In this document: one piece after another, positions 6,157 through 64,000 of the stretch | Layout: every line of letters starts with the position of its first letter | Position numbering within the stretch: the first letter of the stretch is position 1 | From: Escherichia phage vB_Eco_Tribble | Sequence record: OX016465 | Reading direction: 5' to 3' (one strand) | DNA length: 64,000 nucleotides | Made by a program: the position numbers and the translations under genes | Notes under the pieces: model-generated | The model's database searches: none | What the model was told of the DNA's origin: nothing | Seen by the model: only the letters and a program-made list of their open reading frames with translations

Positions 6157-6603
6157 ATGGCTATGTATCAGCAATATTCCCCTAAAGACGTTGTATGTAG
6201 CTGGAACGGCATTGCTATTGAAGGCTTTGCTCCAGACTCATTCTTGCGTCTACAGAGAACATCACCACTTGTGACACCAGTTGTTGGTGCAGGTGGTCAG
6301 GTTGCTCTGACAAGAAATGCAGACAAGACAGGCACTATTGAGATTGAGTTAATGCAGACTTCTCTCTCTAACCAGATGCTTTCTGCAATTCAAGCTAAAC
6401 AAGACAATATGGAACTTGAAGAAGATATCTCTTCTAACTTCGTAATCTACGACCCATCAGGCTCTGTTCTGGCAACTGGTATTAACGCTTGGTTGCAGGA
6501 GTTACCACAGATTGAACTTGGTCGTGACCAGAACTCTAAAACTTGGATTTTTGGTTGTGAGAAGTTAGACTACACTTCTACAATTCCAGCGTCAAGTGTT
6601 TAA
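6157..6603 (+). CDS. Tail tube protein
   Basis: 148 aa ORF after the sheath gene, followed by a terminator-like hairpin. Confidence 0.5.
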   Translation: MAMYQQYSPKDVVCSWNGIAIEGFAPDSFLRLQRTSPLVTPVVGAGGQVALTRNADKTGTIEIELMQTSLSNQMLSAIQAKQDNMELEEDISSNFVIYDPSGSVLATGINAWLQELPQIELGRDQNSKTWIFGCEKLDYTSTIPASSV

Positions 6604-6615
6604 TAAATCCTATAA

Positions 6616-7317: not shown

Positions 7318-15333
<8,016 letters not shown>

Positions 15334-16484: not shown

Positions 16485-16494
16485 TTTCTTTACA

Positions 16495-16514
16495 GGGGCT
16501 GTATAGCCCCTTTT
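16495..16514 (+). terminator. Intrinsic terminator between the two fibre genes
   Basis: GGGGCT-GTAT-AGCCCC hairpin followed by TTTT. Confidence 0.5.
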
Positions 16515-16530
16515 AAGAGGAAAATTTATA

Positions 16531-27228: not shown

Positions 27229-27289
27229 AAGCCCTCCTATATAAGATATAGTATAAGGTACTCTTCCCTGAGCACCTTGTCAATACTAA

Positions 27290-32276: not shown

Positions 32277-32293
32277 GTCTTTATAAATTTTAC

Positions 32294-32320
32294 AAGCCTC
32301 CTTAGTTGGGGGCTTTTTAG
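32294..32320 (+). terminator. Intrinsic terminator
   Basis: AAGCCTCC-TTAGTT-GGGGGCTT followed by TTTTAG. Confidence 0.45.
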
Positions 32321-56344: not shown

Positions 56345-56374
56345 TTGACAAGGGGCTTTGAAGCCCCTTAGAAT
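56345..56374 (+). promoter_or_regulatory. Candidate promoter TTGACA-N18-TAGAAT with a GC hairpin in the spacer, upstream of the rIIB-like gene
   Basis: TTGACA 56345-56350; spacer AGGGGCTTTGAAGCCCC is a perfect hairpin; TAGAAT 56369-56374. May alternatively be a terminator for rIIA. Confidence 0.35.
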
Positions 56375-57544: not shown

Positions 57545-57570
57545 AGGCTGCTTCGGCGGCCTTTTTTATT
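57545..57570 (+). terminator. Intrinsic terminator after the rIIB-like gene
   Basis: GGCTGC-TTCG-GCGGCC hairpin (one G-U pair) followed by TTTTTTATTT. Confidence 0.55.
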
Positions 57571-57597
57571 TGTATTTTGTGCAGAGTGCTGTATAAT
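57569..57597 (+). promoter_or_regulatory. Candidate promoter with perfect TATAAT upstream of the transglycosylase gene
   Basis: TATAAT at 57592-57597 with weak -35 TTTGTA 17 nt upstream; contains TTGTGCAGAG, related to the iteron core at 61.7-61.9 kb. Confidence 0.35.
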
Positions 57598-59887: not shown

Positions 59888-60153
59888 CAGAGAATGAAGA
59901 TACTTTCTATGTAGAAGGTTACTTACTGTTACCACGACCAAAAGAAACTTATATGCGAATTGACTTCATACCAACCATTATGGATAATGTGATGTGTCAT
60001 ATCTTTATGCAAGGTGTCACAGCACAGCTTAAGCATGTCGGTAAAGACTGCAAAATAAAGGTTGACACTCATCCAGAAATCAAAGAGAATCACTACACAT
60101 GGTTCTTACCAGACTCTAAAGAAATCTTAGCAGTTCTCAAAACGAGGAAGTAA
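59884..60153 (+). CDS. Hypothetical protein
   Basis: 89 aa ORF translationally coupled to the upstream gene. Confidence 0.3.
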   Translation: MTENEDTFYVEGYLLLPRPKETYMRIDFIPTIMDNVMCHIFMQGVTAQLKHVGKDCKIKVDTHPEIKENHYTWFLPDSKEILAVLKTRK

Positions 60154-60155
60154 CT

Positions 60156-60482
60156 ATGCAGATTAATGGAAGAGACTTTGTAGCCGTTTACTACGAGAAA
60201 GGTAAAGAGGTTGGTGTAGCACAAGTAACTTATGGCAATGGTAAGTGGCTGTATGGAACAATCGCAGTAGTAGGAACAAGAAGTGATACAAAAACTTTTA
60301 AAGATTGTGTTGACCTTCTTGAAGAATCCATCCAGAATCATTGGTGTCTGATATGGATGACTGATAACGAAGTGATAGAACGTTTCAAAAAGATTAATAT
60401 CAACATTGACAGTATTGAGCATGTTGATTTATATGAGCTAACTGAGAAGGTAAACTATGAAAGTAATACTAGCCAGAGATAA
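60156..60482 (+). CDS. Hypothetical protein
   Basis: 108 aa ORF. Confidence 0.3.
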   Translation: MQINGRDFVAVYYEKGKEVGVAQVTYGNGKWLYGTIAVVGTRSDTKTFKDCVDLLEESIQNHWCLIWMTDNEVIERFKKININIDSIEHVDLYELTEKVNYESNTSQR

Positions 60483-60684
60483 AAAGACACGAAAACTTAT
60501 CAGGTCAGCAGTGTTCATTGGACGAAATGAGGTCATCCCATTTACAGCAAATGATGTGATAGCTTACAGGAAAAACTTAGTATTCACTGACTGCTTACGT
60601 GGCTTCATCTCTGAACCATTGGAAGACTTTAAAAGTCGTTGTGGTAAAGGTATTATCATTCAAGAGGCAATTATTCATGGCTGA
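60457..60684 (+). CDS. Hypothetical protein
   Basis: 75 aa ORF. Confidence 0.25.
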   Translation: MKVILARDKKTRKLIRSAVFIGRNEVIPFTANDVIAYRKNLVFTDCLRGFISEPLEDFKSRCGKGIIIQEAIIHG

Positions 60685-60877
60685 CTTCTGCAAAGATTGT
60701 TCTATCGAAATGTTCGGACGTGATACAGGTGACTTAAAAGGTCTCATCACTGAAGATGACTTTAAGGCTGGCTATGCAATGCCAGTAATCTGTGAAGGTT
60801 GTGGGTGCATCTGGGTAGACCACGAAGGACAGCGTGTAAAACCTTCAGAAGATAAAGAATCTTGGGAGAGATGTTAA
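60677..60877 (+). CDS. Small Cys-rich protein
   Basis: Start at ATG 60677; CKDC…CEGCGC cysteine cluster. Confidence 0.3.
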   Translation: MADFCKDCSIEMFGRDTGDLKGLITEDDFKAGYAMPVICEGCGCIWVDHEGQRVKPSEDKESWERC

Positions 60878-61663
60878 ATGGGTATTGTAAAAATCATCAA
60901 AGGTGATATCTTTGAAGCATTTGATAAAGGTAAATTTGATATCATTGGTCATGGTTGCAACTGTATGAATTTCATGGGTGCAGGTATTGCAGCAACTATT
61001 TCTAAGCGTTATCCAAAAGTGTATGATACTGACACAGAAGTTTACCTGTTTGCAGGTGGCATTCGTCACAAACCCTGTGAAAATTTACTAGGTAATTTAT
61101 CTGTAGCACGTTTAAAACAAGGTCGTATAGCTAACCTTTACACCCAACTTCATACTGGTAAAGATGCACGATACAGTGCTTTAGAGTCATCTTTGAAACA
61201 GCTTAACAGATACTGTGAAGTCAATCAGTTGAAGAAAGTTGGTTTTCCTATGATTGGTGCAGGTATTGGTGGACTTGACCCTCAAGCTGTCACAGTTATC
61301 ATCAATCAGGTGATGAAGAGTGTGGATGTTTATCTGTATGTCTATGAAGGAGAGATGTACCACAAGTTACGCTCAGGTTGGAAGAACTACTGTGAACCAG
61401 AATACTTTGCAGGTGTAGTTGTGTTCACGGATAATGCAGTTACCCTCTTCAGACGAAGAAAAGGTAAGATACATCAAAGTAACCCTCCGGTTGAAAAGAT
61501 GTCTCTAAGTAACGCTCTAGTTACCCACCTGTCGAAGAGCAATCATAGAATTGCCGTGACATTTGGTAGTGATGCAGACACCTACATCTATGCAAGAACT
61601 GATGAGGATATCGAGACAGTTTTCTCTTCGCCAGAAGTTACCTTCTTAGACGCAAAGAACTAA
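60878..61663 (+). CDS. Macrodomain protein (TARG1/DarG-like ADP-ribosyl hydrolase fold) with C-terminal extension
   Basis: GDIFEAFDKGKFDIIGHGCNCMNFMGAGIAATISKRYP resembles the TARG1-type motif …AHCISEDCRMGAGIA… as recalled; second Gly-rich loop FPMIGAGIGGLDP. Confidence 0.55.
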   Translation: MGIVKIIKGDIFEAFDKGKFDIIGHGCNCMNFMGAGIAATISKRYPKVYDTDTEVYLFAGGIRHKPCENLLGNLSVARLKQGRIANLYTQLHTGKDARYSALESSLKQLNRYCEVNQLKKVGFPMIGAGIGGLDPQAVTVIINQVMKSVDVYLYVYEGEMYHKLRSGWKNYCEPEYFAGVVVFTDNAVTLFRRRKGKIHQSNPPVEKMSLSNALVTHLSKSNHRIAVTFGSDADTYIYARTDEDIETVFSSPEVTFLDAKN

Positions 61664-61710
61664 GAAACTTCGTAGGATATTCACAATAGACTAAGCCTTT
61701 CTTATCTGGT

Positions 61711-61915
61711 AAATTTTTCAGGTAAGGAGGGCTTTTTCATTTCAGAATTGTGCAGGTATATTTCTATAGAGAAATCTGTAGAGTGAATTTTGAACTCCAA
61801 AGAGAAAATTCATTTTCAAACTGTGCAGGTAATCTCCAAAGAGCTTTTTCATTTTCAAAACGTGCAGAGAAAAATCAGGTCGGGCAAGAAAAATCATTTG
61901 AGAATTGTGCAGGTA
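61711..61915. repeat. Array of 4-5 direct repeats (iteron-like), core TTTTCATTTTCA(A/G)AANTGTGCAGGTA
   Basis: Copies at 61733-61758, 61805-61832, 61845-61870, 61889-61915 and a partial at 61711-61727, in a 510-bp noncoding region. Confidence 0.6.
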
Positions 61916-62092
61916 GGTGGGTGTAGGTGGGGCTGTCGCCATTTCTCACAAGGCTACCACATCTGAAAATAAAAGTCAAAAGAAAAATTTGTAGCGGATT
62001 GAAAAATAATTCTTGATTGTAGTTCTGTTTTGTGGTAATCGCGCGCACCCGTTTCATTACATTTTTGCCAAAAATATTTTTAAAAATTTTCA

Positions 62093-62121
62093 TTGACTCC
62101 TTGAACGGGTTTTTATAGTAT
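62093..62121 (+). promoter_or_regulatory. Candidate sigma70-type promoter TTGACT-N17-TAGTAT upstream of the small-gene cassette
   Basis: TTGACT 62093-62098, 17-nt spacer, TAGTAT 62116-62121; about 55 nt upstream of ATG 62175. Confidence 0.45.
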
Positions 62122-62174
62122 TTGCATCAGACGGGGCGACAAGCCCGACAGCCTTAAACTAGGAGAACTTAAAA

Positions 62175-62381
62175 ATGCTATACGGTCGTGAATTGATGGT
62201 TACAACTAACGTTAACACAAAGGTAAAACGTTTTTACATGCAAATCTGTGGCGTATGGTCTAGAATATCAGAAGCTGACTATTGCAACTATGTAGAAACA
62301 GCAATCAACTCTGATTGCTACCTTACAAGAAATACAAGAAAGCACATAAGACAGACAGCAGTTTATTACTACGATATCTAA
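62175..62381 (+). CDS. Hypothetical small protein (cassette gene 1)
   Basis: 68 aa; GGAGAACTTAAAA leader before ATG. Confidence 0.4.
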   Translation: MLYGRELMVTTNVNTKVKRFYMQICGVWSRISEADYCNYVETAINSDCYLTRNTRKHIRQTAVYYYDI

Positions 62382-62472
62382 TAAAGTACTTTACAGGGGG
62401 CTTAAAAGTTGATATCTTAAGCCCCAGATAAAGAGCTTTACCACATTAACCCTTAAACTAGGAGATTCAGAA
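62379..62472 (+). repeat. Conserved intergenic repeat A (stop codon - TTTACA - GC hairpin - AGATAAAGAGCTTTACC - RBS)
   Basis: TAATAAAGTACTTTACAGGGGGCTTAAAAGTTGATATCTTAAGCCCCAGATAAAGAGCTTTACCAC…GGAGA; 9-bp stem GGGGCTTAA/TTAAGCCCC. Confidence 0.6.
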
Positions 62473-62856
62473 ATGGCTTATCGTGCACCGAAATTCATCA
62501 ACAAAGACAACTTTCGCAACGTACTGGAGAAGTCACTTGATGAGAATTTCAAAGGCAATAAAATTGTTGTTCACTCATTTAATTTTAAATATGACATCAA
62601 CGGGAATAAAATCAACCATTACACGGCAACCATGATAGATGGTACACTCTCAAGCGAAAAAACCATACTGAATGCACTTGCAGGACGTGGAAAAAACCTG
62701 ATAAAATGCAATAAGAGACGTTATCAGGGTGGCGCATATGGTTATGATGATGCCATTTATCATCTTGAAAATATGGGCTATTCAGTAGAAAAAGTTGGAG
62801 TGCCGCAAATCATTGGTAGCGATGGTTATATAACTATCTTCAAAATTAACAAATAA
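62473..62856 (+). CDS. Hypothetical protein (cassette gene 2)
   Basis: 127 aa; preceded by repeat A and a GGAGA Shine-Dalgarno. Confidence 0.4.
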   Translation: MAYRAPKFINKDNFRNVLEKSLDENFKGNKIVVHSFNFKYDINGNKINHYTATMIDGTLSSEKTILNALAGRGKNLIKCNKRRYQGGAYGYDDAIYHLENMGYSVEKVGVPQIIGSDGYITIFKINK

Positions 62857-62942
62857 AGTACTTTACAGGGGGCTTAAAAGTTGATATCTTAAGCCCCAGA
62901 TAAAGAGCTTTACCACTAAATCCTAAATTGGAGAACTTAAAA
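62854..62942 (+). repeat. Conserved intergenic repeat B
   Basis: Near-identical to repeat A (same hairpin and flanks). Confidence 0.6.
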
Positions 62943-63233
62943 ATGGCTATTATCAAAAACGTTGTAATTACTGCAAAAACTCGTGATGATGCTCGCATTA
63001 TGGCTAAAAAGTTATGCGGTAAAGTTGTTGACAACGGAAAACAGTCTGCTGTAAGGTGGGGCGTGAAGGTTGATAAACAGTTGAAGTTAAAAAATTCACC
63101 AATAAACCTTTTTACATGTGTAAACACTATCGGGAAGACAAATATATACACGAAAAAGGCATATATTAGACGCGTAGCCTTAACCTCCCCCATTCGTACA
63201 ATGAGAGGTCATGCAAAGCTGAAAATTAACTAA
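62943..63233 (+). CDS. Hypothetical basic protein (cassette gene 3)
   Basis: Start reassigned to ATG 62943 (MAIIKNVV…) downstream of GGAGA; 96 aa. Confidence 0.4.
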   Translation: MAIIKNVVITAKTRDDARIMAKKLCGKVVDNGKQSAVRWGVKVDKQLKLKNSPINLFTCVNTIGKTNIYTKKAYIRRVALTSPIRTMRGHAKLKIN

Positions 63234-63321
63234 TAAAGTACTTTACAGGGGGCTTATAGTTCGATAAAGTAAGCCCCAGATAAAGAGCTTTACCACTAAA
63301 TCCTAAATTGGAGATTCTAAA
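63231..63321 (+). repeat. Conserved intergenic repeat C (same stem, different loop)
   Basis: Flanks identical to repeat B; hairpin GGGGCTTA-TAGTTCGATAAAG-TAAGCCCC keeps the stem while the loop differs. Confidence 0.6.
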
Positions 63322-63618
63322 ATGAAATTATCAAATAAAGTTCGTGAAAATCTGAGCAAGTTACTTAATAAAATTGATTTCATTGAAACATCAAGAAATA
63401 GCCACGACGTTATGGAATGGTTACACGGAAAAATTAAAGGACGTCGTGTAGTGATTTGCTTGTGGAATAGTTGCAGGGAGTATAAAAACCCTGTATTGCA
63501 AGTCAATATTTACGATGATACTTTTAAAAGTCCAGTAAAGTCTAAAAGTGACTTATTAGAATCCTATGAGATAACTGTAAGCGGCAAAGTATCACGTAAA
63601 GAGGAATCACCATGCTAA
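63322..63618 (+). CDS. Hypothetical protein (cassette gene 4)
   Basis: 98 aa; preceded by repeat C. Confidence 0.4.
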   Translation: MKLSNKVRENLSKLLNKIDFIETSRNSHDVMEWLHGKIKGRRVVICLWNSCREYKNPVLQVNIYDDTFKSPVKSKSDLLESYEITVSGKVSRKEESPC

Positions 63619-63944
63619 TGACTGGCATCACTGCAATTATTGCCATTTTCGCGCTCTATAAGGCATATAAAGCCTATAACCTAGCAAATAAGGCAATCAC
63701 GCAACAGGTCAATAATAGCCTTGTAATGAGCTTTCTGGAGCGTTTAAGTGATGAACAAATAAAACGGTTAGAAATGAGTTTCAGATTTCAATCGAGAACT
63801 TATCAAATCAGCGACATCTTTAAAGATGATTTTCAGTTAGTCGATGATTATAACTCTCTGATAAATGCTTTAAATATCAGTGACTTAAAAGACTACTACG
63901 CTGTAATTGTTCAAGAACTGAGCAAACGAAAAAATTTATCTTGA
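63612..63944 (+). CDS. Hypothetical protein with N-terminal hydrophobic segment (cassette gene 5)
   Basis: 110 aa; N-terminal ITAIIAIFALY hydrophobic stretch; overlaps the upstream stop. Confidence 0.35.
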   Translation: MLMTGITAIIAIFALYKAYKAYNLANKAITQQVNNSLVMSFLERLSDEQIKRLEMSFRFQSRTYQISDIFKDDFQLVDDYNSLINALNISDLKDYYAVIVQELSKRKNLS

Positions 63945-64000
63945 TTTTGATTTTAAAAACAAGTAAATTACTAATCAACGGGGAGGGAATGACCTTCCCC

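Follow-up and report, generated by a model that had tools for sequence, protein, structure and literature searches.

Results

Repeated linkers in the early gene array

The early gene array of Escherichia phage vB_Eco_Tribble (sequence record OX016465), a Felixounavirus, raises the question of why one intergenic unit of about 90 bp stands again and again between its small genes; the window analysed here is a stretch of 64,000 nucleotides of this record. We propose that the unit is a composite linker, combining an early promoter for host RNA polymerase, a hairpin that the upstream message forms in its sense RNA and a stretch of portable homology through which cassettes are exchanged, and we consider this reading probable. 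It is backed by sequence comparison, namely by the conservation of promoter elements, by selection for pairing on the sense strand and by homology breakpoints located at the units, from which we infer promoter activity, the molecular role of the hairpin and a mechanism of recombination.

Three same-strand units were found in the window, each spanning the stop codon of one small open reading frame (ORF) to the ATG of the next and each with GGAG ahead of that ATG. The 25-mer AGCCCCAGATAAAGAGCTTTACCAC occurs exactly three times, against 0.00 occurrences expected in shuffles, and the unit head TTTACAGGGGGCTTA also occurs exactly three times; the coordinates and these counts agree with a sequence-only reading of the window, which had described three intergenic copies running from a stop codon to GGAGA and ATG. 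The units and the genes they join are as follows (SD, Shine-Dalgarno sequence).

62379..62475, plus strand: unit A; stop codon TAA at 62379-81, SD AGGAG at 62460-64, ATG at 62473
62382-62440, plus strand: hairpin of unit A; lower stem 62382-87/62435-40, middle stem 62389-93/62429-33
62397-62405/62417-25, plus strand: upper stem of unit A; loop 62406-16
62390-95 and 62413-18, plus strand: predicted promoter of unit A; -35 TTTACA and -10 TATCTT, with TG at 62410-11
about 62425-62427, plus strand: predicted transcription start of unit A; conserved leader AGATAAAGAGCTTTACCAC at 62426-44
62854..62945, plus strand: unit B; hairpin 62854-62912, with stop codon TAA at 62854-56 doubling as the first 3 nt of the hairpin
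62862-67 and 62885-90, plus strand: predicted promoter of unit B; -35 and -10 TATCTT, leader 62898-62916
62930-33, plus strand: SD GGAG of unit B; ATG at 62943
63231..63324, plus strand: unit C; stop codon TAA at 63231-33, hairpin 63234-63292
63242-47 and 63265-70, plus strand: predicted promoter of unit C; -35 and -10 TAAAGT (a different loop, still TAnnnT), leader 63278-96
63310-13, plus strand: SD GGAG of unit C; ATG at 63322
62175..63944, plus strand: five small cassette ORFs linked by the units, of 68, 127, 96, 98 and 110 amino acids

Units A and B are identical over 65 nt and diverge ahead of the SD, and unit C carries the 3' part of B together with seven loop positions unlike those of A and B, so that the three are mosaics of each other (loop1+tail1, loop1+tail2 and loop2+tail2). 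Upstream of the -35 element lies the A/T-rich stretch AATAAAGTAC; 3' of the hairpin, the near-invariant leader is followed by a short variable spacer, CCTAAAyTrGGAGA and the ATG. The array is located downstream of rIIA/rIIB and a Macro-domain gene, amid small hypothetical genes. For every cassette ORF product the match is to a PHROG family of unknown function, none has a Pfam domain, and an Rfam search of positions 60000-64000 gave no match at E of 1 or below.

Predicted promoter elements conserved within the hairpin

The promoter elements were compared across 125 occurrences of the unit, taken from the window, ten GenBank regions and IMG/VR contigs and comprising 43 distinct cores. A 15-mer scan of IMG/VR returned mostly chance matches, and after filtering only contigs of approximately phage-genome size with real units were kept. 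The search pattern fixed only parts of both flanks and tolerated one mismatch in TTTACA, and under it TTTACA was invariant across the 43 cores. A TAnnnT hexamer followed at a distance of 17 bp in 41 of them and of 18 bp in the other two, which carry a 1-nt insertion. Eleven distinct hexamers occupy the 17-bp position, including TATCTT, TAAAGT, TAGTAT, TAAGAT, TATGAT and TAATCT; their information content is 1.68, 1.73 and 1.84 bits at positions 1, 2 and 6, against 0.33, 0.07 and 0.21 bits at positions 3-5, a pattern over the hexamer that is, as far as sequence can tell, the signature of a sigma-70 -10 element. Positions 1 and 2 sit in the unpaired loop, and their conservation is therefore not explained by the hairpin. 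Moreover, the 1-nt difference in length between stem types falls downstream of the -10, so that the length of the spacer is preserved. The loop had earlier been described as variable: it does differ in unit C, but it is constrained in that TAnnnT is kept 17 bp past TTTACA.

A promoter consensus scan called all three units with 9 of 12 matches each (TTTACA, 17 bp, and TATCTT in A and B or TAAAGT in C), two of them, A and B, with an extended-10 TG. The embedded promoter TTTACA-N17-TATCTT proposed in the sequence-only reading is thus supported, as a prediction, by comparative conservation. We suggest that each unit would act as a sigma-70 early promoter, consisting of the A/T-rich stretch, TTTACA, the 17-bp spacer, TAnnnT and, in many cases, the extended-10 TG. 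The expected point of initiation is close to the final C's or the initial A of CCCCAGA, so that the next small gene would receive a fixed leader of about 45 nt that is free of structure and has a strong SD. Past the predicted start, no consistent structure was found in the leaders of the three units (z of 0.2, -2.9 and 0.0).

The same unit is present in Felix O1, whose genome paper (Whichard et al. 2010, PMC3185647) lists it as nothing more than 'two 57 bp direct repeats'; this 57-bp repeat, CTTTACATGGGGCTTAAAAGTCTGTAAAGTAAGCCCCAGATAAAGAGCTTTACCACT, separates genes 15 and 16 and again genes 19 and 20. Neither the promoters, of which the list is short, nor the terminators given there include it, and the secondary promoters downstream of terminators are called unknown (PMC3185647). 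In the expression data of that study, ORF16 and ORF20, which are downstream of the two repeat copies, both peak at 5 min, and ORF19, which is upstream of one copy, peaks at 25 min (PMC3185647), a pattern that lends the predicted promoter indirect experimental support.

Two other placements of a promoter in the unit were tried and rejected. If the -10 is taken to be TAAAGT at the stop codon, so that the transcript would begin with the hairpin, the best upstream -35 at 16-18 bp matched 4/6 in 13% and 5/6 in 5% of cases, which matches a background of 14% and 2%; as a positive control, in 56 of 57 contexts the type 2 linkers described below show a -35 that matches 4/6 or better, also where it falls within the upstream ORF. 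A second promoter starting from the 3' TTTACC has no usable -10, as position +17 lands on the SD.

An interrupted helix with pairing kept on the sense strand

RNAfold predicts for the unit a hairpin of 20 bp in three segments (6+5+9 bp), with a 1x1 and a 3x3 internal loop, at -21.9 and -22.4 kcal/mol and z of about -5, rather than the stem of 8-9 bp noted previously. The lower stem UAAAGU/GCUUUA is followed by the 1x1 A/A loop, the middle stem CUUUA/UAAAG, the 3x3 CAG/AGA loop, the upper stem GGGGCUUAA/UUAAGCCCC and an 11-nt terminal loop. The hairpin begins within or immediately after the upstream stop codon. Its upper stem starts 1 nt past the -35 and stops 7 nt past the -10, with the 3' arm occupying the stretch from the -10 to the predicted start site.

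Pairing was assessed in 62 distinct units aligned with MAFFT. In this set, 95.7% of cells were paired, compared with at most 56% when the partner columns were slid, and the covariation score was 0.128, against 0.064 in shuffles, none of 500 of which attained 0.128. In the short-stem variants, MAFFT had set the 1-nt indel within the stem, which produced false mismatches at two pairs; once these variants were re-registered by script, 97.3% of cells were paired. Compensatory changes were found at pair 23-49 (G-C to U-A, giving GGTG/CACC in Kolesnikvirus), at pair 27-45 (U-A/A-U) and at pair 29-44 (A-U/U-A), and pair 30-43 occurs as five pair types. In the lower stem a G-C to U-A compensatory change was found six times, and the lower helix alone had 93.5% of cells paired, with nine doubly changed cells against 1.6 expected. 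These data agree with the earlier suggestion that the structure is under selection.

The unpaired and wobble cells add a direction to this selection: there were 109 G·U cells and 3 A·C cells, which indicates that pairing is kept on the sense strand only, that is, in RNA or in sense-strand single-stranded DNA. Such a bias does not fit a symmetric duplex operator as far as the alignments can tell, and it bears on the proposal that the inverted repeats GGGGCTTA..TAAGCCCC and the flanking palindromes TAAAGnnCTTTA are operators for a dimeric phage repressor of early promoters. The repeat does overlap the spacer, the -10 and the start site, the classic position of an operator, and TAAAGTACTTTA is a perfect 12-bp palindrome. 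However, about half of the variants have asymmetric half-sites (GGGGT vs GCCCC), G·T exceeds A·C as above (109 vs 3 cells), and variation in the flanks keeps the cross-pairing between flanks and not the palindromy of each flank. Different stem sequences are also present together in one genome, for example in Mordin, and several arm sequences in one genome argue against one repressor. We therefore regard operators of this kind as extremely improbable.

The hairpin also resembles a processing site, a role (for RNase III/E) that the sequence-only reading had listed beside promoter and cassette exchange without choosing among the three. RNase III hairpins between the early genes of T7, such as R1.1, are intercistronic helices of about 20 bp with an internal loop and no U tract, and R1.1 is cleaved on the 3' side of its internal loop. 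Like them, the units are interrupted intercistronic helices without a U tract in an early polycistronic region; unlike the units, the T7 sites are not known to overlap a promoter or to be cassette junctions. A reading in which the hairpin is mainly a candidate RNase III-type site, and which leaves room for the promoter, would have the early polycistronic RNA cut in the 3x3 internal loop, so that the upstream mRNA keeps a protective 3' hairpin and the downstream mRNA is released with its 5' end almost at the start site of the promoter. It is favoured by a length of about two turns of double-stranded RNA (20 bp as 6+5+9 with internal loops, and no short terminator stem), by the compensatory changes in the lower helix, which a terminator does not need, and by the lack of a U tract combined with selection for sense-strand pairing. 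Nevertheless, no Rfam family matched, the lower stem begins in the stop codon and so would be melted by terminating ribosomes, and the 8-bp hairpins of the type 2 linkers, too short for RNase III, are in the same kind of position. On balance, processing as the main role of the hairpin appears to us rather unlikely.

The sequence 3' of the hairpin is AGATAAAG, the T run that directly follows the GC-rich hairpin of an intrinsic terminator is absent in every variant, and a terminator scan called none of the three units; the sequence-only reading had likewise held that the hairpin is not a canonical terminator. Might the unit nevertheless be only a terminator or attenuator between genes, with incidental promoter-like hexamers? 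Its GC-rich hairpin stands directly past a stop codon, as do those of the rho-independent terminators of the same genome (61693-61734, 59336-59353 and 16495-16518), and the stem-loop of one promoter-early stem-loop (PeSL) element, a type of linker found in T4-like phages, lowered lacZ expression as much as rrnB T1 (PMC2839356). The terminators of this genome, however, have short loops and a T run, whereas the units have an 11-nt loop that holds the -10; the lack of a T run makes classical termination unlikely. In addition, the TA of the -10 is near-invariant in an unpaired loop amid varying neighbours, and the spacer is held at 17 bp, neither of which a terminator needs. We consider a role confined to termination or attenuation very unlikely.

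In the composite linker that we favour, read-through RNA from the upstream gene would fold into the 20-bp interrupted hairpin beginning at the upstream stop codon. The hairpin would create the 3' end of the upstream message, shield it and limit read-through, by attenuation or by endonucleolytic processing, and each cassette would thereby be its own expression unit.

Distribution of the unit and cassette exchange

The 1.6-kb region of the window that holds the units had matches in 238 phage records, and the annotated ones examined belong to Felixounavirus or other Ounavirinae genera. BLAST searches with a 91-nt unit found 1,422 matching places in 287 records, with up to nine copies per record among the records listed; the repeat is thus not confined to one genome, the finding that had been named as one that would speak against the sequence-only reading. 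The named ones among these records belong to Felixounavirus (phages of Escherichia, Salmonella and Shigella), Mooglevirus (phages of Citrobacter and Shigella) or Kolesnikvirus (phages of Erwinia and Hafnia). Outside Ounavirinae-type records, no DNA similarity to the unit was detected by BLAST, and there was no match in 5,426 complete Escherichia coli genomes, on which ground a host origin of the unit was rejected. Within the phages, the copies are confined to the early array.

Comparison of the window with 15 relatives placed nearly all homology breakpoints within a few nucleotides of a unit or of the promoter at the head of the array; by our count, two are elsewhere, at 63599 and 63854. Meda, KhF1 and others have an extra cassette of about 0.5 kb at unit C, with unit C matched on both sides of the insert; Felix O1 has another gene in place of the two genes between units A and C; some relatives lack gene 1 between the head promoter and unit A; and Mooglevirus phages have an additional 162-bp ORF at the 5' edge of unit A. 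In 111 of the 125 copies, an ORF ends at the unit and an SD-led ORF starts after it, both in the orientation of the unit. These 111 junctions represent 26 distinct upstream-to-downstream gene adjacencies among 24 protein clusters, with one gene having five different predecessors and one gene pair occurring in both orders. The variant of the unit is decoupled from the flanking genes, and across genomes as many as nine variants of the unit occur at one and the same junction, indicating that units exchange among themselves too. The cassette exchange put forward in the sequence-only reading is accordingly supported by the breakpoints, the variable adjacencies and the mosaic units.

Tandem double units without a gene between them were also observed, in Mordin (L124) at 6463-6611, fused at ...GAGCTTTACCAACTTTACATGG..., and in Barry (L003) at 10344-10655, about 90 nt apart and with 'repeat_region' as their sole annotation. 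Such doubles have the look of scars, left when a cassette was lost or when recombination slipped from one CTTTAC motif of the unit to the other, and they would also be compatible with cassette mini-circles produced by recombination of neighbouring elements. In the composite reading, recombination between copies of a unit of about 90 bp, set in one orientation between cassettes, would insert, delete or swap cassettes with expression left intact.

The number of copies, up to nine per genome among the records listed, together with the short length and the inverted repeat, could also suggest a miniature mobile element of the REP or MITE kind, selfish and with no regulatory role, that has spread between genes. 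We give this suggestion almost no credence, given that 111 of 125 copies are in the register from stop codon to SD and ATG and in gene orientation, that the unit is confined to the early array and absent from the 5,426 E. coli genomes, and that its internal pattern of conservation is that of a promoter.

A further possibility, raised by analogy, is that the sense-strand hairpin acts as folded single-stranded DNA, as a structure-specific recombination site. The attC sites of integrons have a conserved structure with variable sequence and extra-helical loops, are folded from one strand and stand one per cassette in a same-orientation array. The units share with them structure over sequence, internal loops, folding of one strand, one site per cassette and the same orientation, and both the excess of G·T over A·C and the breakpoints at units are compatible with an attC-like role. 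No integrase is annotated in the regions examined, and such a role would come as a considerable surprise; if true, a strictly lytic phage family would have integron-like cassette capture, making and taking up mini-circles.

Several considerations weigh against the composite linker. On the promoter side, the hexamers are moderate (-35 of 5/6 and -10 mostly of 4/6), the T at -10 position 6 is also a base of the stem, so that its conservation is counted twice, and the search pattern that collected the units fixed parts of both flanks. A search of one literature library found no transcription start site, transcriptome or transcript-end data for Ounavirinae, and the unit promoter is hence only predicted. 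As for the hairpin, covariation was counted in cells and not in independent events, GGTG/CACC may have arisen just once, in Kolesnikvirus, and the middle helix, being invariant, gives no evidence on pairing either way. Its mode of action is the weak step of the argument: without a U tract, efficient intrinsic termination by the units is unlikely, and the putative attenuator part leans, by analogy, on the one PeSL reporter experiment. Finally, breakpoints at repeats would arise passively from any 90-bp homology.

Comparison with the linkers of T4-like phages

PeSLs have been described in the T4-like phages RB49/phi1, T4/PST and KVP40/nt-1, where they are found mainly among the ORFans of hyper-plastic regions, in coincidence with indels, and where experiments demonstrated promoter activity, a downstream reporter attenuated and mini-circles (Arbiol et al. 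2010, PMC2839356; Comeau et al. 2014, PMC4122927). PeSLs and units have the same order of parts, namely an upstream stop, an A/T-rich stretch, a sigma-70-type -35 and -10 at 17 bp, a stem-loop, an SD and a start. In both, the stem-loop is of the form GGGG...CCCC with G-T pairs and is placed in the spacer that separates -35 and -10 or over the -10; the -35 form TTTACW of the T4/PST PeSLs is common to the units as well. Both recur from one small ORFan to the next in a hyper-variable early region, at indels or replacements between close relatives. Position from stop to ATG, the 17-bp promoter, the stem-loop, the ORFan cluster and the indel ends inside the elements, by which PeSLs are recognised, were all found in the units, and the unit fits the published PeSL definition feature by feature on sequence grounds.

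The two differ in lineage, the units occurring in Ounavirinae and the PeSLs in T4-like phages, with no DNA similarity to the unit detected by BLAST outside Ounavirinae-type records. The units are far more uniform than PeSLs; their 20-bp helix, in three segments, extends as far back as the stop codon, and their 19-nt leader is almost invariant. Furthermore, the promoter, attenuator and mini-circle activities of PeSLs have been measured, whereas the units are known from sequence alone. In the literature library searched, no paper linked PeSLs with Felix O1-type phages, and descriptions of PeSLs were found for T4-like phages only.

If the composite reading is correct, Felix O1-type phages, which are widely used in Salmonella typing and biocontrol, would gain early promoters that their genome paper could not find, and the expression of genes downstream of many hairpins would be explained. 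A linker of promoter plus stem-loop, known only from T4-like phages, would then recur in another myovirus subfamily without detectable DNA similarity, and this recurrence would argue for a general solution to the plug-and-play exchange of ORFans for host takeover and anti-defence. What would be new is a putative function for an overlooked repeat and a PeSL-type architecture that extends beyond T4-like phages. The units would be natural conserved landing pads for engineering cassettes into Felix O1-type phages, and their roughly 1,400 natural variants would provide a ready-made mutational series for separating the constraints of the promoter from those of the hairpin.

Related linkers and neighbouring repeats

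Other sites in the window share parts of this design.

62093..62177, plus strand: head of the array; predicted promoter TTGACT-N17-TAGTAT (62093-62121), short GC hairpin, CCTTAAACTAGGAGA, ATG at 62175
63941..64000, plus strand: type 2 linker, cut by the end of the window; TTGATT at 63941-46, N17, TAAATT at 63964-69, ACTAATCAAC
63980-64000, plus strand: type 2 hairpin; GGGGAGGG AATGA CCTTCCCC
56345..56374, plus strand: rIIA-rIIB junction; TAAAGTGT-TTGACA-AGGGGCT TTGA AGCCCCT-TAGAAT
16489..16518, plus strand: hairpin of intrinsic-terminator type, not a unit; TTTACA-GGGGCT GTAT AGCCCC-TTTT, after a late ORF (tail fibre region)

The type 2 consensus consists of a -35 (TTGACA, TTGCAA, TAGACA or TTGATT), N17, TAAATT or TAAAGT, about 10 nt ending in ATCAAC, and the hairpin GGGGAGGG..CCTTCCCC; in the genome paper on Felix O1, this promoter appears under the name '39 bp repeats' (PMC3185647). 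Further type 2 linkers are present in Barry (L003) at 9984-10076 and 12195-13780, and in relatives the site at the head of the array bears the type 2 hairpin. Standing at the 5' end of its own transcript, this hairpin is probably an mRNA-stabilising 5' stem-loop. At the rIIA-rIIB junction, the hairpin makes up the whole 18-nt spacer of a near-consensus promoter (TTGACA...TAGAAT), upstream of which TAAAGTGT resembles the head of the unit and represents a homologous head.

A copy of the unit head, ending in AGCCCC, had also been reported at 16489. The head TTTACAGGGGCT GTAT AGCCCC is indeed there, but its 6-bp stem and 4-nt loop are followed by TTTT, and a hairpin plus T run after a late gene makes the site a canonical terminator, a different thing from the units. 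TTTACA, the -35 hexamer of the units, stands directly ahead of both late-region terminators, at 16489-16518 and 32289-32320, which could be chance or a relic of the same design. On the minus strand at 27283, TTGACA, a hairpin AGGTGCTC AGGGAA GAGTACCT and TATACT are found; 22 bp separate the two hexamers, more than a standard promoter allows.

In the Erwinia/Hafnia phages L125 and L126, a third hairpin family was observed, GGGGTTA CGGTTATGAGAC TAACCCC (for example L126 11135-11217 and 8646-8721). It is laid out with a -35 of TTTACA or TTGCAA, 17 bp, GACTAT and a 3' arm right past the -10, and its leader, GTCGAAACAAACAACCCTTAyAAAGGAA, differs; judged by its letters, the design is kept here where the sequence is not. 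The annotation of Mordin (L124) includes a 14-bp 'repeat_region' upstream of many ribosome-binding sites, which is AACAATCCTAAACT before GGAG (for example 7399-7412), indicating that the end of the conserved leader had been seen before, without interpretation.

Finally, four to five tandem repeats with a spacing of 39-47 nt and the consensus CTCCAAAGAG..TTCATTTTCAAA..GTGCAG(GTA) are located at 61728-61912 of the window, from the terminator of the Macro-domain gene to the head promoter, and a further copy follows the rIIB terminator (57568-57583). The array is also present in Mooglevirus (Mordin) and, as four copies of TTTTTCATTTTCAATTTGTGCATAGG, in Kolesnikvirus (Prophecy and SPARTY); these repeats could be iterons or phage-specific promoters.

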